A stretch of 33,230 bases of DNA from Patescibacteria group bacterium (GCA_038063435.1 JBBTVC010000016.1:1-33230), one strand, 5' to 3'; positions 21 to 20,923 are shown, counted from the first letter of the stretch. Notes: generated from the sequence alone by a model not told the origin. Numbers and translations are program-made.

Positions 21-64
21 CAATCAATATAAAACCGCCTACTTAGGCGGTTTTATATTGATTG
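21..64 (-). terminator. Long perfect hairpin 3' of tRNA-Pro, probably a bidirectional intrinsic terminator
   Basis: Arms caatcaatataaaaccgcct (21-40) and aggcggttttatattgattg (45-64) are exact reverse complements with loop actt. A CCGCC/GGCGG core is flanked by A and T runs. It sits directly downstream of the minus-strand tRNA. Confidence 0.6.
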
Positions 65-136
65 GTCGGGGTGCCGAGAATCGAACTCGGGCTACAAGAC
101 CCCCAGCCTTGCGTACTGCCTCTATACTACACCCCG
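63..136 (-). tRNA. tRNA-Pro (anticodon GGG), CCA encoded
   Basis: The reverse complement folds as a 74-nt cloverleaf. Acceptor stem CGGGGTG/CACCCCG, D stem GTAT/GTAC, anticodon stem CAAGG/TCTTG with loop CTGGGGG (anticodon GGG, G37), T arm CCGAG-TTCGATT-CTCGG, then ACCA. Confidence 0.9.
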
Positions 137-2040: not shown

Positions 2041-2676
2041 ATGGCTAATCCTGAATCGGCGCCAGAAGTTAAGTCAAGCGGCAATTTTCCGGAGCCCAAA
2101 AATTTTTCGGAGGAATTAATTATTGGAAAAGAGGAGCGCGCCGAATTGGCGCGCGAGCTTGACGCCGAGAAACGCGAACTGCTCGGCTCAATAGAAGATT
2201 TAAATAAGAAAGAAGCACTGGATTTGATTCCGGAATTGGGCGGAACTTTAAAGATGGCTCGCAAGGTGGCGGGCGAAATCGCGGACAGCGCCCTTGCCGG
2301 CAAAAAAGACGAAGCCAAGCTGAAGCTGGAGGTGCTGAAGGATTTGCGCGATGCTCTGCAAATAGAAAGCCAAAGCGAAGAAATCGCCGCCTTTGACGGA
2401 ATCAAGCTGCTTAATACACAGAGTAAATTTCGTTTTATAACGGATAATTTAGTTCAGAGGTCCATGTTTTATTTGGACGCGGAAGAAGGCAGGCGCCTGC
2501 AATCAACGCTTGACTCTTTTAAAACCGATATCAAAACGCTCAGCGATTCCTATCAAAAAAACAGGCGCTTAAGCGGAGAAGAGCGGAGGGCTTTAGACCG
2601 CATATTCAGGAAGACGGTAGATCTTTTGGGTTTGGCCAGCCGCGGGGATTACGAAGATTTTATAGGCAGTATTTAA
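2041..2676 (+). CDS. Hypothetical acidic, predicted all-helical protein inserted between rpsG and fusA
   Basis: The ORF is 211 aa from ATG 2041 (the track's TTG at 2029 overlaps the rpsG stop). It is tightly packed between rpsG (6 nt) and fusA (13 nt). I recognise no family motif. It is rich in E, K, L and R with heptad-like stretches. Confidence 0.6.
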
Positions 2677-2689
2677 TTTTTTATTTTTT

Positions 2690-4795
<2,106 letters not shown>

Positions 4796-4944: not shown

Positions 4945-5793
4945 ATGAGAAGAATCGGACCGGTGTTTGCGATGATTTTTGCGATTTTTGTTTCTGCCGC
5001 TCAAGCGGCGCCGACCGAGTATTATATCCCAAAGCCCGACGGCAAATACGACAACCACGCATATCTCGTTAACCCCGAAAAATACAGCTTTAACTTAGTT
5101 AAAAATTCGGTGGTGCGTCTGGAAAATACTACCGAGTTTAAGGGTTCTGACGGCAGGCCTGTGTCCAACACCAGGATCGGAGGCGGCGTTATACTCGGGA
5201 AATATGTTTTAACTGTCGCGCATGTGAGCGTTCAAGACGCGCTAAAAATACCCATGCCGCCTTTCGGCTCTATTGCGATTCCGGCCAGGAAAATCAGCGA
5301 GAAAACTTTTGCCGTTCTTGATGGAGTGAAAGTTCTTTTAACCGCGGTCCACATTAAAAGAGAAGACGACATAGCTATTTTTAAACTCCCGGACGACATT
5401 AGTGTCGGCGCTTTTCCGTACGAAATTGGCGACAGCGACGATTTGGAGATTGGCAATATGGTGTATGTTGTGGGAAACCCTTTGAATATGGGCGTAAACG
5501 TCAGGCAAGGCATTGTCAGCGCGGTTGAAGCACCCAAAGAAACCGAAGGCGTTGACGGCAAAAGCAAAAACTTTTTCATGTTGTCATCCGGAGTATACGG
5601 CGGCGACAGCGGCACTCCGGTCATCGCGGTCCGCGACGGCAGATTTGAACTTGTCGGCATTTCGGAGGGTGTTTTTGGCAGCGCCGACCAGCTTGGCTTT
5701 GCCATACGCATCAACGTCGTTAAGCGTATTGTTGAAGATTGCCGAAAATGCTCCGAAGATTTAAAAGATATTTTCAGGAAAAAAGCCCGCTAG
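4945..5793 (+). CDS. Secreted trypsin-like (S1 family) serine protease
   Basis: Signal peptide MRRIGPVFAMIFAIFVSAAQA|AP. Catalytic-triad contexts are LTVAHV (His), DDIAIFKL (Asp) and GGDSGTPV (Ser). A strong SD precedes the start. Confidence 0.8.
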   Translation: MRRIGPVFAMIFAIFVSAAQAAPTEYYIPKPDGKYDNHAYLVNPEKYSFNLVKNSVVRLENTTEFKGSDGRPVSNTRIGGGVILGKYVLTVAHVSVQDALKIPMPPFGSIAIPARKISEKTFAVLDGVKVLLTAVHIKREDDIAIFKLPDDISVGAFPYEIGDSDDLEIGNMVYVVGNPLNMGVNVRQGIVSAVEAPKETEGVDGKSKNFFMLSSGVYGGDSGTPVIAVRDGRFELVGISEGVFGSADQLGFAIRINVVKRIVEDCRKCSEDLKDIFRKKAR

Positions 5794-5806
5794 ACGGGCT
5801 TTTTTG
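5784..5806 (+). terminator. Intrinsic terminator after the S1 protease gene
   Basis: Stem AGCCCG/CGGGCT has the stop codon in its loop. A T6 run follows and an A run precedes it. Confidence 0.7.
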
Positions 5807-5886
5807 TCGCTCTTCCTTATTTTTAAAAGATGCGCTAGGATTATCGCGAAGGGCACATTGATAGTTTGAAATCGGCGGAGGTCTGT

Positions 5887-7359
5887 ATGAAAAAGGCGGC
5901 CTTGGTCGCTCTGTCTTTAATTGTTTCAGCGACAATTTTACTTACCCACTACGAAGCGGCTATACGCGATCCGTCGGCAAAAGAGGAAGAACTGAGCTTT
6001 ATCAGAAAAAGAGTCGGCACCATAATAGTTCCGCAAGAGCATAGTTTTGAAATTTTGCCTAGGGACGCCAAAGAGGCGGGCGAAAAAAGAACCGAAACCA
6101 TGAAGCTCGCCAATTTCGGCCGAGCCTTTACGGCTCGTATGCGTGGAAACAAAATGCTCTTAACTTCGGGACACACGCTTTCTCCTCCTATCGGGCGCGA
6201 AATTTCCATGTTGGAAAGCGTCTTTGCCAAAAGGAATAAAATTGACGAGTCTAAATTTGAAGTCAGGTATAAATCCACGGAAGTTAAGAAAGAGAGTCTG
6301 GTTTTCCGGATAGGCGATAACATCTATAAGGATTTTGAAATAAAATTTTTGCTTTTTGACGAAATTGGCCAGGACTTCGCGATTCTCGCGTTCAAAGACG
6401 CTGGAAAAATTCCTAAAGAATATTTTAAACTTGGTTCTACCGCGGATTTGAATTACGGAGATACACTTTTTATGGCCGGCGGTAGCGGTTCTTCTCCAGC
6501 CAACATTTTTTTGGTTCCGGCAATCTTTGAAGAAAATCAGGAAGTTTTCATTCAGCCCGACGGCAGTATCGGGTATGGGCAGGCGGTTATGACGCTAAGC
6601 GGCGCCGCAGTCGCGGCCGGAGCTTCCGGCTCTCCCATATTGAAAAAAGACTTCGGCTGTTCAAAAATTTACTGCTATCGCGCGGTTGGAATCGTGCGCA
6701 GCATCATAGGCGACATTGACGACGCCAGGCTTCATTCGCACACGTTTCATGCCGCCAGGATAGAGTTGGTGAAAGAAGCCGCGGACAACATTGTTTTTCC
6801 GGTTAAGCCCAAAGAGGGCGAAAAAAAGGCAAACTGGCTTGAAGTTATTAGAACAAAGACACTCTCGTTTGATCGCATGAGCTGGGTTGTTTTTGGAACG
6901 ATCGCCGCTTTCGCGATTCTTCTCCTCCTGATTTTCAAACCGCGGAATACATACCTGTCGTATCTGGTTGCGTCGGTTTTAATCGTTTTGATTTCGCTTT
7001 CGGTTTATTTCGGCATTCGTTCGTCTCTCGGCTGGCCGAGCCGTTTTATCCCGGAAAACGATTTACTGTTGGTTGACGTCAAGTCCGAGCCGTCCAACAA
7101 AAGAGCGTATTTGTTGGTTAGAGAAAAACTGCCAAGCGGAGAATTCAGCAAATTGCGCCTGCTTGAGGTTATTTACGAGCCCGGATCCAGCAGCGCGAAG
7201 GAGCTGGACGGAAGAATTCAGCTGCTCAAAAAGGGCAAGGGAACCATTCTTCGTTTAAAGAGATTAACAAGGGGCGGGGCATTCAAAACCCCGGAACTTT
7301 CCGAATTTGAGTTTCACGACTTCCTTCACGAAAACCTTCCGCCTAAAAAAATAAAATAA
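5887..7359 (+). CDS. Membrane-tethered trypsin-like serine protease homolog with two extra TM helices and an unknown C-terminal domain
   Basis: I prefer ATG 5887 (GGAGG 6 nt upstream) over the track's TTG 5866. There is an N-terminal anchor, MKKAALVALSLIVSATILL. Triad-like contexts are TSGHT, QDFAILAF and GASGSPIL. TM helices WVVFGTIAAFAILLLLIF and YLVASVLIVLISLSVYFGI follow. The last ~110 aa match nothing I recognise. Confidence 0.7.
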   Translation: MKKAALVALSLIVSATILLTHYEAAIRDPSAKEEELSFIRKRVGTIIVPQEHSFEILPRDAKEAGEKRTETMKLANFGRAFTARMRGNKMLLTSGHTLSPPIGREISMLESVFAKRNKIDESKFEVRYKSTEVKKESLVFRIGDNIYKDFEIKFLLFDEIGQDFAILAFKDAGKIPKEYFKLGSTADLNYGDTLFMAGGSGSSPANIFLVPAIFEENQEVFIQPDGSIGYGQAVMTLSGAAVAAGASGSPILKKDFGCSKIYCYRAVGIVRSIIGDIDDARLHSHTFHAARIELVKEAADNIVFPVKPKEGEKKANWLEVIRTKTLSFDRMSWVVFGTIAAFAILLLLIFKPRNTYLSYLVASVLIVLISLSVYFGIRSSLGWPSRFIPENDLLLVDVKSEPSNKRAYLLVREKLPSGEFSKLRLLEVIYEPGSSSAKELDGRIQLLKKGKGTILRLKRLTRGGAFKTPELSEFEFHDFLHENLPPKKIK

Positions 7360-7396: not shown

Positions 7397-8024
7397 ACAT
7401 TGCGCCTTTGGCCGCGGCGATTCTTTCAAAATCAAAACGAACGCTTTCTTTAATAAATTCCCCGTTTACGTCCATATCAAACTGCACAATCGTTTTTTCA
7501 GCGCCGCTTTTTTCCATGATTATTTTTTTGTCAAAAACTGTTTGCATGTCTATCGCGACGCCGTTTCTAAATCTTTGGATCATAATTTTTATCTCCACCG
7601 GAACTTCGCCCACGCCGCGAAAATAAAACAGATTAACTATATAGTGGCCGGCAATTTTATCTTTGTCCGCGACCGAAACAATAAACTCCTCGTTTCTGTC
7701 GGTTGTCGCGTCCCAACCGGTGTCGTCTCTCAAAAGAACGAACGTTGGGCTTTGCGGCCTAGAATAACCGACCGATCTGTCGTCCGGCCCCTGGGCCCAC
7801 ATATCAATATCCTGCGTCCACTTTTCAGGCCAAGTCGCGTGGATTGTGATTATGCTTTTTACCGCTCCTTTGGCCTCCTCCTCTTTTTTTATGCTGGCCA
7901 CGATAAGCAGCGCCACCAGAAGAACAACAATGGAAAGGTAGTTGTTGAGCACCACGTCAATGAAGGCGGTGGTGATGCTCGTGTTTCTTTTGTTATTTCC
8001 TCTGGAGCGGAATCTTAATTTCAT
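7395..8024 (-). CDS. ExbD/TolR-like single-pass membrane protein with a non-canonical beta-rich C-terminal domain
   Basis: The N-terminus MKLRFRSRGNNKRNTSITTAFIDVVLNNYLSIVVLLVALLIVA resembles the ExbD/TolR basic segment plus the IDV Asp-containing TM helix. Its start overlaps the upstream gene's stop as ATGA (8021-8024). A G-rich SD lies upstream. An alternative in-frame ATG at 8072 has no SD. Confidence 0.6.
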   Translation of the reverse strand: MKLRFRSRGNNKRNTSITTAFIDVVLNNYLSIVVLLVALLIVASIKKEEEAKGAVKSIITIHATWPEKWTQDIDMWAQGPDDRSVGYSRPQSPTFVLLRDDTGWDATTDRNEEFIVSVADKDKIAGHYIVNLFYFRGVGEVPVEIKIMIQRFRNGVAIDMQTVFDKKIIMEKSGAEKTIVQFDMDVNGEFIKESVRFDFERIAAAKGAM

Positions 8025-8770
8025 CCTCCGCCCCCTTCTTTTGGCGTTTCGCGCGCGTTGCCTCCGTTCCATTCAGGAAGAGAGTGCTTCCACATTACAA
8101 GCGACAGCCGTATTCTTAGCTGTACTGTTCCTCTGTCCACTATCAGGCAGAGCAGTTTCAGGAACAGCCATAGGGCTTGGCCGTATAGTGTCGTGATAAA
8201 GGCGGTGGCCATGCCCTCGCTCATGGGGCGCACCATTTTGGTGAAAATCTCGGCTCTGCCTATGTCCAGTCCCATAAATCCTGAAAGAGCAATGATGATT
8301 CCGGCCACCGTGCCCAAAAGACCGAGGGTCACGAGCGAATCGGCTATGAAGTGGGCGGTATCGGTCAAATCGTCCAGCATCATCACTATGTTTTCCATGT
8401 TTTTGTCATGCAGTTCGGTCGGGCTCAACTCTTTTCTTTTTTGCCAAAGATTTCTGATCGCTTTGATGTGATATGAGATAAGGCAGTTATTTTTTTCAAT
8501 TTGGTCGTGTCCATCGCCCTGCGACAGCGCTTCTTGGATTTTACACGTCTTATTTAATTCCCCGAAAACATATATCATTTTATGAGTAATCAGCGCAAGA
8601 CCGATAAAAAATACGGCGATAATCAGCCAGGTTATCTTTGTGTTGTCCAAAGACACGGTGTAGTATATGAGTCCTTCCCACCACATATACGCGCTAAAAA
8701 CAATTCCGATTGCCAGAAAAAAAAGCCAGGTCGCAAGAAAACAATAAGGACTTGCCAGTCTCTGATCCAT
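8021..8770 (-). CDS. MotA/TolQ/ExbB-family proton-channel protein
   Basis: The C-terminal TM pair carries SLVTLGLLGTVAGIIIAL and MATAFITTLYGQALW, the family hallmarks (LGLLGTVxG, TTxxG). Two N-terminal TM helices and a ~90-aa cytoplasmic loop complete the protein. I prefer ATG 8770 (GGAGG with a 5-nt spacer) over the track's TTG 8803. Confidence 0.75.
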   Translation of the reverse strand: MDQRLASPYCFLATWLFFLAIGIVFSAYMWWEGLIYYTVSLDNTKITWLIIAVFFIGLALITHKMIYVFGELNKTCKIQEALSQGDGHDQIEKNNCLISYHIKAIRNLWQKRKELSPTELHDKNMENIVMMLDDLTDTAHFIADSLVTLGLLGTVAGIIIALSGFMGLDIGRAEIFTKMVRPMSEGMATAFITTLYGQALWLFLKLLCLIVDRGTVQLRIRLSLVMWKHSLPEWNGGNARETPKEGGGG

Positions 8771-10203: not shown

Positions 10204-10239
10204 ATGCGTCCCGCAACTGCCGGACGCATTTTTATTTTG
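10204..10239 (+). terminator. Intrinsic terminator after the S41 gene
   Basis: Stem ATGCGTCC (10204-10211) / GGACGCAT (10222-10229) followed by TTTTTATTTT. Confidence 0.65.
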
Positions 10240-10266
10240 TCCCAAAATCTGTATAATAACTTCATA

Positions 10267-12351
10267 ATGGCTAGAAAAAAGAAAGAACGCGCGTCCAAAA
10301 AAGAGGACGCGGGAGAAGTAGGCCGTTACGAAAGGGTAAGCCGGGAAACAAAACATTCCATTTGGGCTATTTTTTCCATGGCCTTGTCTCTTTTATTCGT
10401 GCTTGCGGCTTACGGCAAAGCCGGCTTTATTGGCGAGAGCATCTACGGATTTTTGGACCTTCTTTTCGGCGGAGCGTTTTTTTTGGTGCCGCTGACGCTT
10501 TTTTTAGCCGGACTCTCTTTTATTTTTTCGCTTAGGACCAGTCTTGTGGCCACAACAATCGGCGGAGGGTTTTTAATGCTTTTTTCAACGCTTGGGATAT
10601 TTGATGCTATTTTTGGCGAAAAATCCGCGGGCCTGATTGGGCTTGCCGTTTCTTACCCGCTTTTAAAACTTTTTGATTTCTGGGCAACTTTAGTCATATT
10701 GGTTTCCCTTTCTATAATATCCCTGCTTTTAATGCTTAATGTTTCAATAAAGCCGCGGCGCTGGTTTGCACGAAAAGAAAAAACCGATGATGAAGACTTA
10801 ATTACGGATAACGCCGAGAAAGTATCGGAGACGGCGGCAGAAACGGAACACCCGGCCTGGACCGGAATAAAAGAAGCGGCCGATGCCATCCGCCGGGAAT
10901 TAATGGCTAAATCCGATTCGGTCAGCCGAGCGCCCGTAACAGAGCGGGCCGAAGAGAACCAGGGTCTCGGGGTGGCCGAACCTTCGAATGACGAAGAGGG
11001 TTTTGAGGACGAGTCTTTTAAATTCGGCCAAAAAAATAAAAAGGCCGCTGTTTTCGAGTTCAAACCCCCGCCTTTAGACATTTTAGAAAACGACAAAGGC
11101 AAGCCGTCTTCCGGCGACATTAAGGCCAATTCCAACATCATTAAAAGAACTCTTCAGAATTTCAGCATTGCCGTTGAGATGGGCGAGATAAATGTCGGTC
11201 CGTCAATAACCCAATACACGCTGAGACCGGCCGAAGGCATAAAACTTTCGCGCATTATCGGTTTGCATAATGACTTATCTTTAGCGCTAGCTGCCCATCC
11301 GATAAGAATTGAAGCGCCCATTCCCGGTAAATCATTGGTTGGAGTTGAAATACCGAATAAGTCCATAGCCTTGGTCGGCATGGGCAGTATTTTATCGCAG
11401 GAAGAATATAAATCATCGGCTGCGCCCCTCTTTTTGGGTTTGGGGCGTGATGTCACGGGGCGGGCGATTTTTGCCGACCTTGGCAAAATGCCGCATCTTT
11501 TGGTCGCAGGCTCAACCGGATCGGGCAAATCAGTCGCGATTCACGCCATGATGATGTCTTTACTTTTTCGCAATCCTCCGGACCGGCTTCGCTTTCTGAT
11601 GATTGACCCGAAGCGGGTTGAGCTCACGGTTTATTCCGGAATACCACACATTTTAACACCGGTCATAACCGATGCTAAAAAAGCGATAATGGCTTTGAAG
11701 TGGGCGGTCAAAGAAATGGAGCGAAGATACGAACTTTTGGCCGCCGTCAAAGTGCGCGATATCAAGTCCTACCAGGAATCTAAAAATGCCGGGGAATTCC
11801 CCATGCCTTACATTCTTATAGTGATAGACGAGCTGGCCGACATGATGGCGGCTTACCCCCGGGAAATGGAAGCTTCAATCGTGCGTCTGGCCCAGATGTC
11901 GCGGGCTGTCGGCATCCATCTGGTTGTCTCTACACAGAGGCCGTCGGTTGAGGTTATTACCGGTTTAATTAAAGCCAACATAACCTCGCGCATCGCTTTC
12001 CAGGTGGCTTCTCAAGTTGATTCGCGGACTATTCTCGATATGGCCGGGGCCGAGAAGCTTTTGGGCAATGGCGACATGCTTTATTTATCAGGTGATGCTT
12101 CAAAGCCGCGAAGACTACAGGGCGCTTTTGTTTCTGAATCAGAGGTGAGAAGGGTTGCCCAGCATCTTGAATCCCAATATGCCCAGTCGGAATTCGACGG
12201 CTTGAATCTTGAGCCCGAAAACAGCGCTACGTCTATTTTTCAAACAGGCAAAGCGGAAGAAGTTGACGACGAGCTTTATAAACAAGCGGAGGAGGTGATA
12301 ATGCAGGCCGGCAAAGCATCAGCCTCGTATCTGAACGGAGGCTCCGGGTAG
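10267..12351 (+). CDS. ftsK: DNA translocase FtsK/SpoIIIE (N-terminal TM domain, linker, motor); the reading frame ends prematurely inside the gamma domain
   Basis: Walker A GSTGSGKS, Walker [10 protein letters not shown], and [16 protein letters not shown] 10267 lies 9 nt after TATAAT (10252-10257). The track's start at 10204 falls inside the upstream terminator hairpin. The frame stops at ...[11 protein letters not shown]. Confidence 0.85.
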
Positions 12352-12899: not shown

Positions 12900-13916
12900 A
12901 TGATAAAAAAACAAAAAGAGGAAAAAAATGACAAGATGGCTGCCGTTGAGGCGGCGATCAAGAGCATTCAGGCCAAATATGGCGAGGGCGCGATTATGAA
13001 ACTTGGCGAGGCCCGCCGGGTTGACGTTGATGTGGTGCCGACCGGGTCGCTATCTTTGGATATGGCTTTGGGTGTTGGCGGAGTGCCTCGGGGAAGAGTG
13101 ATTGAAATTTTCGGCCCTGAATCTTCGGGTAAAACAACACTTGCTTTAAATATCGTGGCGCAGGCCCAGAAAAAAGGAGGTCTTTGCGCTTTTGTGGATG
13201 CCGAGCATGCGCTGGATCCGGAGTACGCCAAAAAGTTGGGAGTTAAAATTGACGACCTTCTGATATCCCAGCCTGACACCGGCGAGCAGGCCCTTGAAAT
13301 AGTTGAATCTCTGGTGCGTTCGGCAAGCATTGATGTTGTGGTGATTGATTCGGTCGCTGCCCTTACTCCTAGGGCGGAAATTGAAGGAGATATGGGCCAA
13401 GCCCATATTGGTTTGCAAGCCAGGCTCATGTCCCAAGCCCTTCGCAAGCTCACGGCCCTTGTCGCAAAGACTAAAACCATCGTTATTTTTATAAATCAAA
13501 TAAGGATGCAAATCGGCATGATGTTCGGCAATCCCGAAACTACACCCGGCGGAAAAGCGCTTAAATTTTACGCGTCAGTCCGCATTGATATTCGCCGCAC
13601 GGCCCAGATAAAAAAGGGGGAAGAGTCAATCGGCAATCGTGTTAAAGCCAAAGTGGTTAAAAATAAAGTGGCCGCGCCTTTTAGGTTCGCCGAATTTGAC
13701 ATAATGTTTGGCGAAGGCATTTCTTACGAGGGCGATGTTTTGAATCTGGGAATTAAATATGAACTGGTTAAAAAACTGGGAAACACTTTTTCTTACGACG
13801 CCCACAAGCTCGGCGTAGGCTACGAAAACGCCAGAAACTTTTTGAAAGAAAATCCAAAAATCACTCAGGAGCTGGTTAAAAAAATAAAAGAAGCGGCCAA
13901 ATCCGCCGCTTCGTAA
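12900..13916 (+). CDS. recA: Recombinase RecA
   Basis: [16 protein letters not shown] (Walker A), VVIDSVAAL and [22 protein letters not shown]. Alternative start at 12936 ([12 protein letters not shown]). Confidence 0.95.
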
Positions 13917-16856: not shown

Positions 16857-18194
16857 GTGAACAAAATCAATCCGTCTATATTTAAAGAATACGATATTCG
16901 GGGAAAATATCCCGACGAAATTGACGAGGATGCTGTTTATAAAATTGGTTCCGCTTTTTGCGAATATCTAAATCAAAAAAAACATTTCGGTAAAATCGTC
17001 GTAGGGCGGGACGCGCGGCTTTCTTCGCCGGAGTTGTCCGAGGTTTTCACGCAAGGAGTTTTAGACCAGGGCCGGGACGTTATTGATGTCGGACTTTGTT
17101 CAACGCCTCTTTTTTATTTCGCGCTGAATTCGTCCGGCTCGGCCGGCGGCGGAATGATCACCGCTTCGCATAACCCTAAAGAGTATAACGGATTGAAATT
17201 GATCCGCGAGGGCGGGCGGCCGGTTTATAAAAAAGACGGCTTGCCGGAAGTCGAGACGCTGGCCAACTTAGAAATTGCGCGAAAATTCGGAGTAGGAAAG
17301 GCAACAAAAGAGGATTTTAGCCGAGGTTATTTAGATTTTTTAAAAAAGCACACTGACACAAAACGGCCGTTAAAAATTGTTGCCGACGCCTCAAACGGAT
17401 CGGCCGGGCCAATTTTAGAAAAATTTTTAGACGAAACGAGTGTTTCTTCCGAAAAATTATTTTTTGAGCCCGACGGAAGTTTTCCGAATCATTCACCGAA
17501 CCCATTTTTGCCGGAGTCAAGAAAACTTCTTGAAGAAAAAGTTAAGACATCCGGCGCCGACTTTGGATTTATAGTTGACGCAGACGGCGACAGAATATTT
17601 TTTATAGACGAGAAAGGAAACTATGTTCCAGGCGATATAATGTTTGCGTTTTTGCTGGACAATCTCGCGCGAGAAGGGGACTTGATTCTTATTACAACGC
17701 GCGAGTCAAAAATTTTATTTGAAGTTGCGCAAAGAAGGGGAGCCGATGTAGTAAGAACTCGTGTTGGGCACGCAAATATAAAAACAGCCATGCGCGCCAA
17801 AAATGCCCGTTTCGGAGGAGAATTGTCCGGACATTTTTATTTCCGAGATTTTTATTATTCTGATTCGGCTCTTTTGATGCTGGCGCATGTTTTAACTCTG
17901 GTTTCGGTTTCAAACAAGCCGTTTTCTGAATTATTAAAGCCGTATCAAAAATATTTCCATTCCGGAGAATTAAATTTTGAGACCAGAAATCCGCAGGAGG
18001 CAATAGAAAAGTTAAAAAAAGAATATTCAAGCGGCCGCCAGTCATTTCTTGACGGTCTGTCTGTTGATTTTGACTCGTGGTGGTTCAATATCCGCGCTTC
18101 TAAAACAGAACCTCTCGTGCGCCTCGTCGTTGAGGCCGATTCCCAAAAACCAATGGAAGAAAAAATAAAAGAGTTGACAGAAAGGATTAAATAA
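16857..18194 (+). CDS. Phosphomannomutase/phosphoglucomutase (alpha-D-phosphohexomutase family)
   Basis: FKEYDIRG, active-site TASHNPKEYNGLK, Mg site DADGDR and GELSGH. GTG start. Confidence 0.85.
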   Translation: MNKINPSIFKEYDIRGKYPDEIDEDAVYKIGSAFCEYLNQKKHFGKIVVGRDARLSSPELSEVFTQGVLDQGRDVIDVGLCSTPLFYFALNSSGSAGGGMITASHNPKEYNGLKLIREGGRPVYKKDGLPEVETLANLEIARKFGVGKATKEDFSRGYLDFLKKHTDTKRPLKIVADASNGSAGPILEKFLDETSVSSEKLFFEPDGSFPNHSPNPFLPESRKLLEEKVKTSGADFGFIVDADGDRIFFIDEKGNYVPGDIMFAFLLDNLAREGDLILITTRESKILFEVAQRRGADVVRTRVGHANIKTAMRAKNARFGGELSGHFYFRDFYYSDSALLMLAHVLTLVSVSNKPFSELLKPYQKYFHSGELNFETRNPQEAIEKLKKEYSSGRQSFLDGLSVDFDSWWFNIRASKTEPLVRLVVEADSQKPMEEKIKELTERIK

Positions 18195-18239
18195 GCTAGA
18201 ATTTTTCTAGAATCCTTGGACTAGGGTAGGGGTGAAATT

Positions 18240-18455
18240 GTGTGGCATGTAGGTGGTTTTCCAAACAAGAACGCGCCTGTTTATATCCTTGTCGAGGAGA
18301 GTGCTTGTAGAGATAATGTGCCATTCTTGGCTAAGGCGATATTAGTAAAAACGGATCCGACATGGTGCTGGAAGTTGCTTGAATTTGATCCAGAAGAGGA
18401 AGAGGAAATTCTACAGCAACATTATTCGGTGGTTGCGTGGAGATATGTAAACTAA
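18240..18455 (+). CDS. Hypothetical Trp/Cys-rich 71-aa protein, first orphan gene of the pmm-trpS islet
   Basis: GTG start with GGGGTG 5 nt upstream. The ORF is followed 12 nt later by a strong hairpin terminator. I recognise no homology. Confidence 0.35.
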   Translation: MWHVGGFPNKNAPVYILVEESACRDNVPFLAKAILVKTDPTWCWKLLEFDPEEEEEILQQHYSVVAWRYVN

Positions 18456-18467
18456 AAATAAATTATT

Positions 18468-18499
18468 CCGCCAACGCATAATGCCGAGGCGGTTTTTTT
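18468..18499. terminator. Hairpin terminator T1 (bidirectional, A/T runs on both sides)
   Basis: CCGCC (18468-18472) ... GGCGG (18488-18492) with inner GC pairs, then T7. It is homologous to the hairpin at 19462-19491. Confidence 0.7.
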
Positions 18500-18556
18500 A
18501 TTTTTTAATTTCTAAACCAAATTTTTAATCACGGCAACCCAGCATCATATATGATC

Positions 18557-18596
18557 CAGTAATCTAATAGTAACGATCGTTACTATTAGATTACTG
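18557..18596. repeat. 40-bp perfect palindrome centred on CGATCG
   Basis: cagtaatctaatagtaacga|tcgttactattagattactg equals its own reverse complement (checked base by base). It is intergenic. Confidence 0.9.
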
Positions 18597-18640
18597 CGGC
18601 GCTAGATAGACGTTGCGTACAATTTATAGAATATAAAAAA

Positions 18641-18678
18641 ATTAAAAATCCAAGAGGCCGATTTTGGTTTATTTGACA
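18641..18678. repeat. trpS 3'-end relic, copy 1 (the most degraded)
   Basis: attaaaaatccaagaggccgattttggtttatttgaca. The reverse complement reads (stop)-T-K-I-G-L-L-D-F-stop, compared with the trpS C-terminus K-S-K-I-G-L-L-Q-F-stop. Confidence 0.8.
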
Positions 18679-18701
18679 AAACATGTCTCCGGGTGTATAA
18701 T
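18673..18701 (+). promoter_or_regulatory. Consensus sigma70 promoter P1
   Basis: TTGACA (18673-18678), exactly 17 nt, TATAAT (18696-18701). Both hexamers are perfect consensus. Confidence 0.65.
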
Positions 18702-18779
18702 ATAAAAATAGTTCCCGCTTGCCCGTGGTTTCAGCATGGTGCTGGAATGAGGGGCGAGCAAAAACAAAGGAGGCCAGTC

Positions 18780-19397
18780 GTGGCCAAAAGCAACGCGGCG
18801 GTACAGTTCGCGGGTCACTTCCAGGCGGTCGTCGGAGAACTAGCCGGCCGTCTGGAAAAGAAGGGTGGGAGTATCGTTGAGGTTGTCTCCAGACTCGCGC
18901 AGCCAAAAAACGAGCAAGTTCTTGACCAGATTGTGGAGACGCTTGTCGGGCTCATCAACATCTTTCGAGTGAAAATCGGCGGAAGAAAAAACATCGCCAA
19001 AGTTGTCAAAGCGAGCGCCTGCGCCTGCGATAACTCGATCGTTGAGCGATGCGTATTGCAGACAGGGTGCGAGCGCTTGGTCACGATTGAGACTTTTACT
19101 GTTGAGCACTTTGATAACCCCGAACCAAGCGATACCGAGATTGAGGCCGAGCATATCAAAAGAGGCCTCAAGCGCCCGGATGTGGATCATGTAATCCACT
19201 TCGTAGAGCAATACAAGCATTTGCCGGTGGAAGGGCGTCCGATTATCTTCTATCTGCAGAATCCAGTTCCTGATGCCGGCAACCGCGGCGTTCTGTTTTT
19301 ATGGCGCAGCGGTGCCATACGTAATCTCGGCTGGCTCTGGATCGATCCGGGCCCTCGGTTGACTCGCCCATGCAGTTTTGCCGGTGTCCGCGAGTAG
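18780..19397 (+). CDS. Hypothetical 205-aa protein in cassette 1, visibly more G+C-rich than its neighbours
   Basis: GTG 18780 is preceded by AAGGAGG (18767-18773) with a 6-nt spacer. Promoter P1 lies upstream and hairpin T2 downstream. The track ORF start (18693) lies inside the -10 box. An alternative in-frame ATG is at 18747. I recognise no family motif. Confidence 0.6.
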   Translation: MAKSNAAVQFAGHFQAVVGELAGRLEKKGGSIVEVVSRLAQPKNEQVLDQIVETLVGLINIFRVKIGGRKNIAKVVKASACACDNSIVERCVLQTGCERLVTIETFTVEHFDNPEPSDTEIEAEHIKRGLKRPDVDHVIHFVEQYKHLPVEGRPIIFYLQNPVPDAGNRGVLFLWRSGAIRNLGWLWIDPGPRLTRPCSFAGVRE

Positions 19398-19461
19398 CGC
19401 TTGGATTCTATTTAACATTTTGCGATTAAAGAGTAATCAAAAAATAGACGTCAAAATTATT

Positions 19462-19491
19462 CCACCAGGGCTAAATGCCTAGGTGGTTTTT
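19462..19491. terminator. Hairpin terminator T2, homolog of T1
   Basis: CCACC (19462-19466) ... GGTGG (19482-19486), then TTTTTGTTT. Relative to T1, the G->A and C->T changes are compensatory within the stem. Confidence 0.65.
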
Positions 19492-19524
19492 GTTTGATTT
19501 TATAATTTTAAATTTACCAGACCC

Positions 19525-19536
19525 CTACGATCGTAG
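19525..19536. repeat. 12-bp palindrome CTACGATCGTAG, the short counterpart of the 40-bp palindrome
   Basis: It has the same ACGATCGT core and the same relative position (between the hairpin and the trpS relic) as 18557-18596. Confidence 0.5.
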
Positions 19537-19576
19537 AAATGTGGTTAATTTGGTTTTCAAGGCTTTTGTGGTTTTT

Positions 19577-19612
19577 GTTAAAAATCCAAAAGGCCGATTT
19601 TGGATTTTGACA
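19577..19612. repeat. trpS 3'-end relic, copy 2
   Basis: gttaaaaatccaaaaggccgattttggattttgaca. Positions 19587-19608 are identical over 22 nt to 19940-19961. The reverse complement reads S-K-S-K-I-G-L-L-D-F-stop. It contains the inverted repeat AAAATCCAAAA-ggccga-TTTTGGATTTT. Confidence 0.85.
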
Positions 19613-19635
19613 GGCCCCGTGCTTAAGAGTATTCT
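19607..19635 (+). promoter_or_regulatory. Putative promoter P2; its spacing implies a leaderless transcript
   Basis: TTGACA (19607-19612), 17 nt, TATTCT (19630-19635). The A of ATG 19642 is 7 nt after the -10 hexamer. Confidence 0.5.
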
Positions 19636-19641
19636 GTGTGC

Positions 19642-19911
19642 ATGGCCGACTATGTTACTAAAAAAGAGTTAAGAGACCTTCTTTCAGAACAGACGGAAGT
19701 AATTTTAAATGCTGTAGACGGAAAATTCGGCTTGCTTAAGGCGGAAATAGAGGAAAATAGACGACTAATCAAAGACTTAACTTTGACGCTGGATGAATTT
19801 ATGAAGCGGGTGATAAATCAAGACGAAGAAATCGTTTTGCTTCGCGCGAAAGTGGACAAAATAGCAGGTTTCATCAAAGAAAAATTCGGCGTAGAAATTT
19901 CCGCGCAGTAA
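19642..19911 (+). CDS. Hypothetical 89-aa coiled-coil protein in cassette 2
   Basis: MADYVTKKELRDLLSEQTEVILNAVDGKFGLLKAEIEENRRLIKDLTLTLDEFMKRV... is heptad-rich. There is no SD, which fits leaderless initiation from P2. Confidence 0.55.
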   Translation: MADYVTKKELRDLLSEQTEVILNAVDGKFGLLKAEIEENRRLIKDLTLTLDEFMKRVINQDEEIVLLRAKVDKIAGFIKEKFGVEISAQ

Positions 19912-19929
19912 AAAAGGAAAAACAAAAGA

Positions 19930-19961
19930 GTTAAAATTGCAAAAGGCCGATTTTGGATTTT
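19930..19961. repeat. trpS 3'-end repeat, copy 3 (the functional end of trpS)
   Basis: gttaaaattgcaaaaggccgattttggatttt covers the trpS stop codon and its last 9 codons. It matches copy 2 at 30 of 32 positions. Confidence 0.85.
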
Positions 19962-20923
19962 ACTTCGGCCATAGTTTTCTGGGCTTTGAGCCGGGCCTTG
20001 TTAGACCCCTCTTTTAAAATTTTTTCTATTTTTTTTGGATTTTTCGCGAGTTCTCTATATTTTTTTTGGATGGGCGCGAGATGCGCGATTATCGCTTCGG
20101 CTAAATCGTTTTTAAATTCGGCATAGCCCGAATTTTTATATTTTATTTCGAGTTTTTTTATCGGCGTCTCGCTTACCAGGTAAAAAATATCCAAAAGGTG
20201 GGATACGGCCGGCTTATTTATTGAGTCGTATTTTATAGCCGAGCCGGAATCCGTAACAGCTCTTTTAATTTTACTCCGGATTTTGTCCGGCGAGTCGAGC
20301 AGGGCGACATATGAATCGGAACCATGCGACTTGGACATCTTTTTTTGCGGATGCGTCAGCGAATAAATTTTAGGCACTTCATCAAAAAGAGACTGCGGCT
20401 CCGGAAATATTTTTCCGAAACGATGATTAAAGCGTCTCGCAATTTCGCGGGATATTTCCAGATGCGGATCCTGGTCTTTTCCTATCGGAACCCGGCTTGC
20501 TTTATAAATAAGAATGTCCGCGGCTTGAAGTACCGGATAATTTAAAATGCCAAAAGAGCCAGCTTTTGGGTTTTCGGCAACCATTTCTTTGTAGGTCGGA
20601 TTTAGTTCTAGCATTGAGACTGGGAGAAGCGTTGCAAGAATTGAAGATAGCTCGCCATGCTCCGGAACGGCCGATTGCAAAAATATAGTTGATTTTTTCG
20701 GATTAAGTCCGGCCGCAATCCAAGTGGTCACCATCTCGCGTGTTTTTTCTTTTATATTTTTAGTGGTTTTCAGGGTGGTTAAAGAGTGAAGGTCGGCGAC
20801 CATAAAGTAGCATTTATACTGATTTTGTATTGATATCCATTGGCGCACCGCGCCGAAATAATTTCCGATATGCTGTTCGCCGGTCGGTCTCATTCCCGAA
20901 AGGACTATTTCTTTTTGAGGCAT
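19931..20923 (-). CDS. trpS: Tryptophan--tRNA ligase
   Basis: 330 aa, class I motifs HIGNYFG (HIGH) and KMSKS, with TrpRS-like sequence throughout. Confidence 0.93.
   Translation of the reverse strand: MPQKEIVLSGMRPTGEQHIGNYFGAVRQWISIQNQYKCYFMVADLHSLTTLKTTKNIKEKTREMVTTWIAAGLNPKKSTIFLQSAVPEHGELSSILATLLPVSMLELNPTYKEMVAENPKAGSFGILNYPVLQAADILIYKASRVPIGKDQDPHLEISREIARRFNHRFGKIFPEPQSLFDEVPKIYSLTHPQKKMSKSHGSDSYVALLDSPDKIRSKIKRAVTDSGSAIKYDSINKPAVSHLLDIFYLVSETPIKKLEIKYKNSGYAEFKNDLAEAIIAHLAPIQKKYRELAKNPKKIEKILKEGSNKARLKAQKTMAEVKSKIGLLQF

Follow-up and report, generated by a model that had tools for sequence, protein, structure and literature searches.

The question raised by this locus is why the 3' end of one gene occurs three times in the short interval beside that gene. 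The gene is trpS, which encodes tryptophan--tRNA ligase, and the interval lies between pmm and trpS on a contig of a Candidatus Niyogibacteria-like Patescibacteria member from Hainich groundwater (GCA_038063435.1, JBBTVC010000016.1). The whole stretch of 33,230 bases that was analysed is referred to as the window. The copies of the trpS end (R) are read here as the working 3' end of trpS and two left-overs from the insertion of small promoter-bearing genes into the pmm-trpS gap, and these left-overs as scars of insertions by host recombination at a small transfer hotspot, with the joins at a TTGAC microhomology; we give this reading a probability of about 0.5. Most likely, this is an ordinary yet unusually legible insertion hotspot, and nothing found here shows new cassette machinery. 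The flanking genes, the inserted genes with their promoters and the copies of R are listed below in window coordinates (aa, amino acids).

16857..18194, plus strand: pmm (phosphoglucomutase/phosphomannomutase), which is conserved and bounds the variable gap on the left, with all four PGM_PMM domains.
18174..18202, plus strand: promoter-like site TTGACA-17-TAGAAT inside the pmm 3' end, 11/12 consensus, aimed at the 71-aa gene.
18240..18455, plus strand: 71-aa gene of unit 1, in the slot beside pmm, with 24 homologues at E<=1e-3 in an exhaustive search.
18645..18672: R1, the outer relic of the trpS end and the more decayed one, with 3 mismatches to the 28-mer and TTGACA directly after it.
18673..18701, plus strand: promoter of the 205-aa gene, TTGACA-17-TATAAT, 12/12 consensus.
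18780..19397, plus strand: 205-aa cargo gene with a GTG start; a part at 19264-19391 resembles a variable region (VR).
19581..19608: R2, the displaced trpS end, a perfect 11-6-11 palindrome identical to the live end of the relative L012.
19607..19635, plus strand: promoter-like site of the 89-aa gene, TTGACA-17-TATTCT, 10/12 consensus.
19642..19911, plus strand: 89-aa cargo gene converging on trpS, with 12 homologues and only weak, below-threshold Pfam matches.
19931..19961, minus strand: R3, the 3' end of the live trpS gene (its 9 final codons, a part of the tenth and the stop), reading KSKIGLLQF-stop.
19931..20923, minus strand: trpS, the conserved right flank of the gap, intact with 330 aa (tRNA-synt_1b, E = 4e-65) and 76-85% identical to the relatives' proteins.

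Exact matches to the 22-mer CAAAAGGCCGATTTTGGATTTT are found at 19587-19608 and at 19940-19961, the latter being the live trpS end, and a match with 3 mismatches at 18651-18672. The 33,230 bases contain no other site for it. By chance, 0.01 matches would be expected, and three matches were given by 0/100 shuffles. The repeat search identified a family of three copies, spaced by 936 and 353 bp, that corresponds to the last ~12 codons of trpS. All copies are direct repeats with GGCCGA on the same strand. R2 consists of AAAATCCAAAA GGCCGA TTTTGGATTTT. The minus strand reads VK-stop-TKIGLLDF-stop at R1 and KSKIGLLDF-stop at R2. An earlier sequence-only reading of this DNA had already reported that the last codons of trpS recur twice upstream, with which the matches, spacings and shuffles all agree, and its reverse-strand readings of both copies and of the live gene were correct when re-read directly. 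An assembly artefact is ruled out, as the window is matched at 99.95-100% identity by contigs of six other Hainich samples or runs. Among these, L003 covers all three copies of R, from pmm to the S10 operon.

The pmm-trpS gap was compared among five lineages including the window. The other four are Candidatus Niyogibacteria relatives that were reached through homologues of the tryptophanyl-tRNA synthetase (TrpRS) and then through their contigs. They are L011, L012, L013 (complete genome CP066691.1) and L093, with trpS 84-85%, 80-81%, 76% and 82% identical to that of the window, respectively, and pmm is syntenic in all of them. L016 (67%) has other neighbours around trpS and is without R. A scan of genome-collection contigs with TrpRS reached relatives at <=54% identity only. 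The five lineages have five different gene contents between pmm and trpS, and no mobility genes were found there. The slot next to pmm holds an 82-aa gene in L011, a 145-aa gene in L012 and a membrane protein gene in L013 and L093. These genes are mutually unrelated except the homologous L013/L093 pair. The membrane protein has 206 aa in L093 (1940-2560) and 145 aa in L013 (8194-8631), and this length difference is a tandem-repeat polymorphism, an expansion of G-L-V/I-A-G-type repeats.

L011 and L012 are empty sites. Both have pmm, one small gene, a terminator-like hairpin (T), a CGATCG-centred palindrome (P) and then directly the live trpS end. L093 has a 106-aa homologue of the 89-aa gene at its trpS end, converging on the stop codon, without P and without a second R. 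L013 has the order T, P, a 33-nt remnant of the 89-aa gene family, a relic of R and a diverged live end, KQKIGLLDFY-stop. The remnant matches L093 at 27/33 bases, a score that 0/2000 shuffles reach. The TrpRS tree places the window weakly with L011, L012 with L093 (89% bootstrap) and L013 outside. On this tree the distribution of the 89/106-aa gene is patchy, which implies either clean loss at least twice or repeated gain at the same spot. Presence/absence variation, for which the sequence-only reading had looked to the relatives, is thus found, as the 89-aa family is present, absent or reduced to 33 nt.

The trpS gene ends in KSKIGLLDF-stop in L011, L012 and L093, and the ending LDF-stop is found in four related lineages. 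Because R2 is identical to the live 28-mer of L012 and LDF-stop is common to the other four related lineages, R2 is, by these comparisons, the ancestral trpS end that was pushed aside, and the live end of the window is an altered copy. The stop-proximal arm of R3 is altered (AAATTGCAAAA, two changes that give LQF-stop) and its palindrome is broken. The sequence-only reading had claimed that decay grows with distance from trpS. R1 is indeed the more decayed copy, but R2 is ancestral and it is the live end that is altered. The order of successive insertions that had been drawn from this decay is doubtful as well. The 89-aa gene may predate the insertion of the 205-aa gene, since its family is also found at the trpS end of L093 and as the remnant in L013.

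One may ask whether the copies are simply functional elements. The full repeat unit at 19576-19612 is one 37-nt hairpin (-13.2 kcal/mol, z = -3.85), so that the boundaries of the duplication fall at the foot of the stem. The relic in L013 (8008-8065, ~12-70 nt downstream of the trpS stop at 7996) has two perfect arms, and a 22-nt GC-rich hairpin is inserted exactly between its central GGCCGA and its right arm. The live trpS end follows 4 bases on. The arms of this relic are better conserved than the live trpS end of L013 itself, and the composite hairpin with U6 has -24.8 kcal/mol and z = -2.8. Judged from its fold, the relic with the inserted hairpin is probably the trpS terminator of L013. 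The copies could accordingly be selected elements, either a bidirectional terminator or a promoter-adjacent operator, that overlap the trpS end by chance. The perfect palindrome of R2 folds well on both strands, and the L013 arms that outlast the live end and resemble a good terminator would fit. The relics, however, still read as the trpS C-terminus with its stop and end where the homology to trpS ends. The hairpin of R without an insert folds weakly in L011 and L012 (z = -1.1 to -1.5) and is missing from the minimum-energy fold at R3, R is found nowhere else in the window or in the other loci, and later re-use also fits an origin as scars. We regard selected elements as a highly improbable explanation.

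A generic intergenic repeat is ruled out. R occurs only thrice in the window and, among the fetched loci, elsewhere only at the trpS ends of relatives. No matches (0) were found in viral contigs (IMG/VR). In metagenomes there were 36 matches, 2 of which are true and both of these an L012-type trpS end; the others are chance matches to unrelated, mostly GC-rich sequence. The concern of the sequence-only reading that R might be a genome-wide element is answered by these searches. A possible very old relic of R right after the pmm stop codon was inspected by eye and is not convincing.

The junctions of the inserted genes show how the copies might have arisen. Three units can be delimited, each of which opens with TTGACA. 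The first consists of the 71-aa gene with T1, P1 and R1, the second of the 205-aa gene with T2, P2 and R2, and the third of the 89-aa gene with R3, the live end. R1, R2 and the L013 relic all begin with T|GTCAAA in the sense of trpS, and homology to trpS ends right after the Val codon. The opposite strand of this breakpoint is TTGAC|A, the -35 box, and TTGAC corresponds to the Val-Lys codons of trpS (GTCAA) as judged from L011 and L013. A microhomology of 5-6 bases, TTGAC(A), is therefore common to the cargo -35 box and to the trpS Val-Lys codons at R1, R2 and the L013 relic. The cargo junction of L093 likewise lies at a common TTTGA. The pmm 3' ends of L011, L012, L013 and L093 have a comparable TTGAC/TTGAT motif in the same place (..E L T.. 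= GAGTTGACA). The promoter-like site in these last codons of pmm faces whichever gene fills the adjoining slot, and that gene varies among most of the lineages. The TTGACA -35 boxes that had been noted at the repeat ends start at 18673 and 19607, and the two single-gene units that the relics bracket hold real genes with their own sites at 12/12 and 10/12 consensus.

The repeats that flank the two units differ in extent. The 89-aa unit is flanked by ~36 bp, which is R only. The 205-aa unit is flanked by ~180-230 bp (18447-18678 and 19433-19612) that include the last codons of the 71-aa open reading frame (ORF), T, P and R. A 19-mer at the pmm 3' end (18157-18175, AAGAAAAAATAAAAGAGTT) also matches the spacer between the 89-aa stop and the trpS stop (19914-19932, AAGGAAAAACAAAAGAGTT) at 17/19 positions. 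This A-rich match is probably due to chance and low complexity.

The 28 bp of R2 and of the live end of L012 have two 11-bp arms and a 6-bp spacer, which in geometry alone resembles an Xer site. A tyrosine recombinase acting in trans, Xer-like or other, might thus use R as attB, and circles of a gene, its promoter and R would integrate at trpS and re-excise. Much in the locus would suit such an enzyme. The two perfect inverted arms with an asymmetric 6-bp centre are the Xer/dif-type geometry (PMC13141974), every copy is directly oriented, and the breakpoint is the same in three relics. The cargo-side arm of the live end differs, as an attP-derived arm would, and a circle formed between R1 and R2 would hold exactly the 205-aa gene, T2, P2 and one R. 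The clean empty sites, the patchy 89-aa gene on the trpS tree and the L013 insertion at the exact boundary of centre and arm also fit. On the other hand, the repeat of the 205-aa unit spans the whole of T, P and R instead of R alone, and L093 has cargo without any second R. Viral contigs are without R and its true metagenome matches lie only at the trpS end of a relative. The conservation of the central 6 bp is accounted for by the conserved I-G-L codons. R as the chromosomal dif site was also ruled out, as the cumulative GC skew rises steadily through R and the flanking str and S10 ribosomal operons are co-oriented; L013 moreover is without an intact R.

A recombinase gene is likewise absent from the locus. 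No recombinase, integrase or transposase apart from RecA was found in the 33 kb, in agreement with the sequence-only reading, and the identifiable genes are core housekeeping genes. This result is based on Pfam scans of ORFs upstream of pmm, which gave housekeeping families or no match, and on the annotation of identical contigs (tuf and the S10 operon) downstream of trpS. The homologues of the cargo genes elsewhere are without R and are flanked by repeats of local sequence instead, as described below. A recombinase in trans is hence considered unlikely. Its more specific form, in which circles of one gene and its promoter with one R would move between Niyogibacteria and integrate into the final codons of trpS by means of a recombinase encoded elsewhere, is more doubtful still.

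The third question is whether the repeats were made in place. The terminators and palindromes of the interval are as follows.

18460..18509, plus strand: T1, a hairpin like an intrinsic terminator, with a U-run, at the end of unit 1 (-13.1 kcal/mol, z = -2.35).
18557..18596: P1, a perfect 40-bp palindrome centred on CGATCG (-24.6 kcal/mol, z = -7.7).
19454..19503, plus strand: T2, a terminator-like hairpin with a U-run after the 205-aa gene (-19.2 kcal/mol, z = -4.1).
19510..19551: P2, an imperfect palindrome with a perfect 12-bp core CTACGATCGTAG and imperfect outer arms, the nearest match to the single P of L011.

T1 and T2 are 76% identical. T1 and the T of L011 differ at just 2 stem-loop positions, and T2 is a paralogue with a compensatory stem change from CCGCC/GGCGG to CCACC/GGTGG. 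The likeness of T1 and T2 reaches upstream, where 19433-19446 matches 18447-18460, the last codons of the 71-aa ORF, and both have private flanking sequence (AAATTATTCC) in common. The two hairpin terminators that had been proposed from the sequence therefore fold with a U-run as claimed, and the CGATCG-centred palindromes of 40 and 12 bp are also confirmed. Module 2 (T2, P2 and R2) is 67-71% identical to the single module of the relatives, and module 1 is 56-59% identical to the same. T-P-R is ancestral DNA downstream of trpS, because it is present as a single copy in the empty-site relatives L011 and L012, where R is the live trpS end. By the same comparison the ancestral layout is pmm, one variable gene, T, P and then R as a 28-bp palindrome. 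The proposal that the module of hairpin, spacer, palindrome and relic marks cassettes is abandoned, as this module is single in the empty sites.

These observations bear on a duplication of T-P-R in place, together with the final 36 bp of trpS, by unequal exchange or slippage from the TTGAC of trpS to a TTGACA promoter box, with genes captured or replaced later. The private flanks of T1 and T2 and the remnant of the 71-aa ORF end point to an event within the lineage and not to an import. TTGACA opens each of the three units, and local tandem duplications are found around the same gene families in two loci described below (L022 and L021). The three unit genes are unrelated, however, so that an extra, unexplained gene replacement would be needed for each unit. 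The 205-aa gene also arrived together with a -10 region and a leader of its own, both homologous to L019, and with a foreign GC content. More steps are required than by insertion with duplication, and we consider a duplication in place rather improbable.

The palindrome P is not restricted to this locus. P-like palindromes of the form ..TTACCAC..TACGATCGTA..GTGGTAA.. are present at 8593-8632 and 9222-9258 of L026, where they flank a PaaX_M-like 185-aa gene, one of them at its start codon. Comparison of the window (19510-19551), L011 (about 2010-2052) and the L026 pair makes P look like one of a dispersed family of protein-binding palindromes. P is possibly an operator of the L026 PaaX_M-like regulator. 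The L026 PaaX-like protein, encoded between two P-like palindromes, is possibly a candidate binder of ACGATCGT-centred palindromes. A second long perfect palindrome of 38 bp (ATCTGTTAAATTTTACCAT|ATGGTAAAATTTAACAGAT) lies in the window at 1024-1061, between the M50 peptidase gene and rpsL, and its TTTACCA/TGGTAAA arms resemble the outer arms of P2. The arms of P differ between lineages yet stay self-complementary. Template-switch correction of quasi-palindromes is a topic of PMC7202029, and such correction, instead of selection, may explain the perfect symmetry of P1 and the lineage-specific self-complementary arms. Three independent Logan contigs begin at 18567, inside P1, which is most likely a break in the k-mer graph.

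The cargo genes themselves were then traced outside the locus. Both are real genes, as the sequence-only reading had held, and both have homologues. The 71-, 205- and 89-aa proteins gave nothing above threshold in Pfam, PHROGs and PADLOC. No homologues of the 205-aa and 89-aa proteins were found on viral contigs. R is absent from all cargo-homologue loci that were fetched (L019, L021, L022-L025 and L026).

The 205-aa gene has a GC content of 51-57% compared with ~40% in its flanks. Its product is 62% identical to a 206-aa protein of L019 (1375-1995). The homologues, 56-63% identical, occupy unrelated sites: L019 has one after pheS, and L021 has one beside NifU. In L019 the VR (1862-1989) differs from a template repeat (TR, 2371-2498) at 12 positions, and 12/12 mismatches lie on TR adenines. 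This pair adjoins, at 2521-3916, bAvd and a reverse transcriptase, RVT_1, the components of a diversity-generating retroelement (DGR). The VR-like region of the window differs from the L019 TR at 17/22 A positions and at 30/106 others (p = 4e-5). No TR, bAvd or reverse transcriptase was found in the 33-kb window, where the best local TR score is 27. By these sequence comparisons, the 205-aa protein is a homologue of a DGR variable (target) protein, and its gene would be an orphan or else a DGR target diversified from a distance. Structure modelling of the protein gave low confidence (predicted local distance difference test, pLDDT, 58; predicted template modelling score, pTM, 0.47), and a fold search of the PDB found no meaningful match (best E = 0.25), so that it speaks neither for nor against a C-type-lectin fold. 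One ENA contig starts at 19357, inside the VR-like region, which could be a hint of population variation.

The 205-aa gene is preceded by one further feature.

18717..18759, plus strand: structured 5' leader of the 205-aa gene family, kept in L019 (about 1312-1354) and L021 (about 5938-5980).

The 83-nt leader region at 18700-18782 has -31.2 kcal/mol and z = -3.6. Its structure has been preserved in all three loci, where several G-U changes and one compensatory pair are seen. The leader has no match in Rfam and could be an unrecognised regulatory RNA. Homology to L019 is clear from the -10 region onward, and a TTGACA -35 box is present in both copies. The moving unit of the 205-aa gene thus consists of the -10 region (GGGTGTATAAT), the structured leader and the coding sequence. 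An origin of this unit by retrotransposition was set aside, as the conserved unit includes the -10 region, which lies upstream of any transcript start. A copy from a donor's slot beside pmm was also rejected, as the sequence after TTGACA matches the L019 promoter and not pmm. An exact 13-mer (CATGGTGCTGGAA) occurs at 18361-18373 in the 71-aa ORF and at 18735-18747 in the leader hairpin, with ~0.03 such matches expected by chance in this region by our own estimate.

Homologues of the 89-aa gene are found between ftsA and ftsZ (L022-L025) or beside mfd (L026). Repeats similar in kind to those of the window were identified around both families. In L021, 197-bp direct repeats with 6 mismatches (5740-5936 and 6731-6927) bracket the 206-aa homologue. 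The left copy holds the last 145 nt of NifU and a promoter, so the 3' end of a neighbouring gene is duplicated there too. The genes after each copy are paralogues that are 27% identical, each with a structured leader. Since these genes are only 27% identical while the repeats differ by 6 mismatches, the L021 repeat appears recent. In L022, ~121-bp repeats (5839-5959 and 6545-6666) flank a 109-aa homologue of the 89-aa gene, with an exact 21-nt remnant of its own 3' end (5598-5618 and 6314-6334). This gene lies in a ~710-bp tandem duplicate that includes a small opposite-strand ORF, and the same is seen in L023-L025. Both cargo genes move, and the same repeat signature arises elsewhere from local sequence instead of R.

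The reading that we favour is insertion by host recombination. The proposed mechanism would require no dedicated cassette enzyme, as DNA from related genomes would be acted on by the recombination of the host. By a first route, a circularised fragment with the cargo and a copy of local sequence would integrate by a single crossover, and the common segment would be duplicated on both sides of the cargo. By a second route, one end of a linear fragment would be joined by homology in trpS and the other at the TTGAC(A) microhomology. Surviving events would be those that leave a complete trpS, and each insertion would for that reason carry a duplicate of the gene end. The trpS end would always be duplicated because of this selection, as insertions that truncate the essential gene are not seen. 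Later recombination or slippage between the direct repeats would delete the cargo cleanly, which would explain the scar-free empty sites and the patchy distribution. The relics would be partly re-used, as they supply the -35 box of the cargo promoters.

Several observations favour host recombination. T-P-R is single in the empty sites, R2 equals the live 28-mer of L012, and all three relics lose their likeness to trpS at one point, TTGAC|A. The gene in the slot beside pmm varies among most of the lineages, as it does in hotspots between core genes (PMC5635113). The repeat lengths are unequal (~36 and ~180-230 bp), a variation that is predicted by homology-dependent integration and not by a fixed att site. 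The cargo genes are also found elsewhere without R and flanked by repeats of local sequence, and no recombinase is encoded in the 33 kb. Similar processes have been reported. Junctions of homology-facilitated illegitimate recombination (HFIR) usually have 3-10 bp of microhomology, and single-crossover integration of circularised DNA duplicates 109-950 bp of target (PMC3240628). Transfer hotspots bounded by core genes and without mobile-element genes are also known (Oliveira et al. 2017, PMC5635113).

Several points weigh against insertion by host recombination. The breakpoint shared by three relics, the re-used 11-6-11 palindrome and the exact insertion in L013 are what a tyrosine recombinase would be expected to leave. 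A homology of 36 bp is short for a RecA-dependent crossover, and natural transformation in this organism is an assumption. Modules 1 and 2 are ~58% identical with unrelated P arms, so that a simple duplication at insertion would have to be followed by much change or to involve a diverged donor. The palindrome of R2 is perfect though R2 is perhaps an old relic, which calls for a recent origin, gene conversion or selection. Sliding-window comparison of trpS with four comparators (72-79% nucleotide identity) gave no clear switch of nearest relative. No population variant without a cassette was seen among same-strain contigs, which were recruited by exact protein identity and form a weak test. No donor genome or circular form turned up in the sequences compared.

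The locus was compared with six known kinds of system. It resembles the hotspots between core genes (PMC5635113) in its short interval with lineage-specific accessory genes, in the lack of integrase and transposase genes, and in that their turnover is ascribed to host homologous recombination in the flanks. It differs in scale (0.1-1.7 kb with one to three small genes) and in its place within the most conserved part of a reduced genome. The insertions also cut into an essential gene where its coding sequence ends and left this end duplicated, something that simple replacement from flank to flank does not bring about. Junction microhomology, target duplicated at both sides and the lack of an element-encoded enzyme are shared with HFIR and single-crossover integration (PMC3240628). 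Classic HFIR, however, usually deletes recipient DNA, and the 36-bp repeat of the window is below the experimental 109-950 bp.

The likeness to the attL/attR scars of integrative elements, which the sequence-only reading had stressed, holds in part, but as a reading of the locus it is weak. Direct repeats of a target 3' end bracket foreign DNA, trpS is intact and the farthest relic is the more decayed. In contrast to such elements, the window has no integrase, and its units, of 0.35 and 0.94 kb, have a single gene each. The flanking repeats are unequal in extent, that of the 205-aa unit taking in 200 bp of intergenic DNA, the cargo is found elsewhere without R, and no att-bearing free form was found in IMG/VR or metagenomes. 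The dif modules of Acinetobacter lack a recombinase gene and have 28-bp sites (11+6+11) that are moved in trans by housekeeping recombinases; their sites are inversely oriented with distinct XerC and XerD arms (PMC13141974). Small units without a recombinase gene and 28-bp 11-6-11 sites are shared with them, here in geometry alone. The dif modules are plasmid-borne and resemble chromosomal dif, whereas the sites of the window are direct repeats with mirror-image identical arms in chromosomal coding sequence off the replication terminus.

The attC sites of integrons are about 57-141 bp and have R/L boxes and extrahelical bases. [quoted passage not shown] The window is like a CALIN in being an array of single-gene units with palindromic sites between them and no integrase nearby. 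Unlike in a CALIN, R copies the 3' end of a coding sequence and measures 28-38 bp, and every unit comes with a promoter-like site of its own (10-12 of 12), whereas integron cassettes use a common Pc promoter. With regard to DGR variable proteins, a relative of the cargo in L019 has a textbook VR/TR pair and the C-terminal region of the cargo differs preferentially at adenines, but the window has no TR, bAvd or reverse transcriptase. Overall, the behaviour of the locus is nearest to that of a small transfer hotspot which host recombination fills, and not to that of an integron or CALIN, a dif module or an integrase-borne island.

The surroundings of the interval are conserved. The gene order of the window is Pro-tRNA, M50 peptidase, rpsL, rpsG, fusA, proteases, FtsK and RecA, followed by SSB, S6, YchF, pmm, the interval, trpS, tuf and the S10 operon. 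This order is based on the annotation of the window and on the precomputed annotation of identical contigs, the latter for the tuf and S10 part. The pmm-trpS interval therefore sits between the str and S10 ribosomal operons. The positions of two of these genes in the window are given below.

10204-12351: FtsK.
12900-13916: RecA.

The Rfam scan gave only the tRNA-Pro at the gathering threshold, and the interval is without a credible match at E<=1. At its very start (17-68), the contig has a perfect inverted repeat of 25 nt, with 2 nt between the halves, that slightly overlaps the 3' end of this tRNA-Pro (63-136, minus strand). It could be a terminator or an assembly artefact of the contig end.

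The findings in this work concern genomes of the Candidate Phyla Radiation (CPR, Patescibacteria), which are tiny and in which gene gain is poorly understood. They indicate that new genes enter such a reduced genome even within its most conserved block, between the str and S10 operons. Entry takes place at one small hotspot, apparently without element-encoded machinery, and the essential gene at its border is protected by a duplicated end. The gene of a DGR-type hypervariable protein appears to travel singly with its promoter and leader, away from the reverse transcriptase, which bears on how DGR targets spread. If a recombinase in trans did act on the palindrome, the locus would represent a new integron-like or dif-module-like cassette system in an uncultured, ultra-small CPR phylum, and one of its cargoes would be a DGR hypervariable protein gene.

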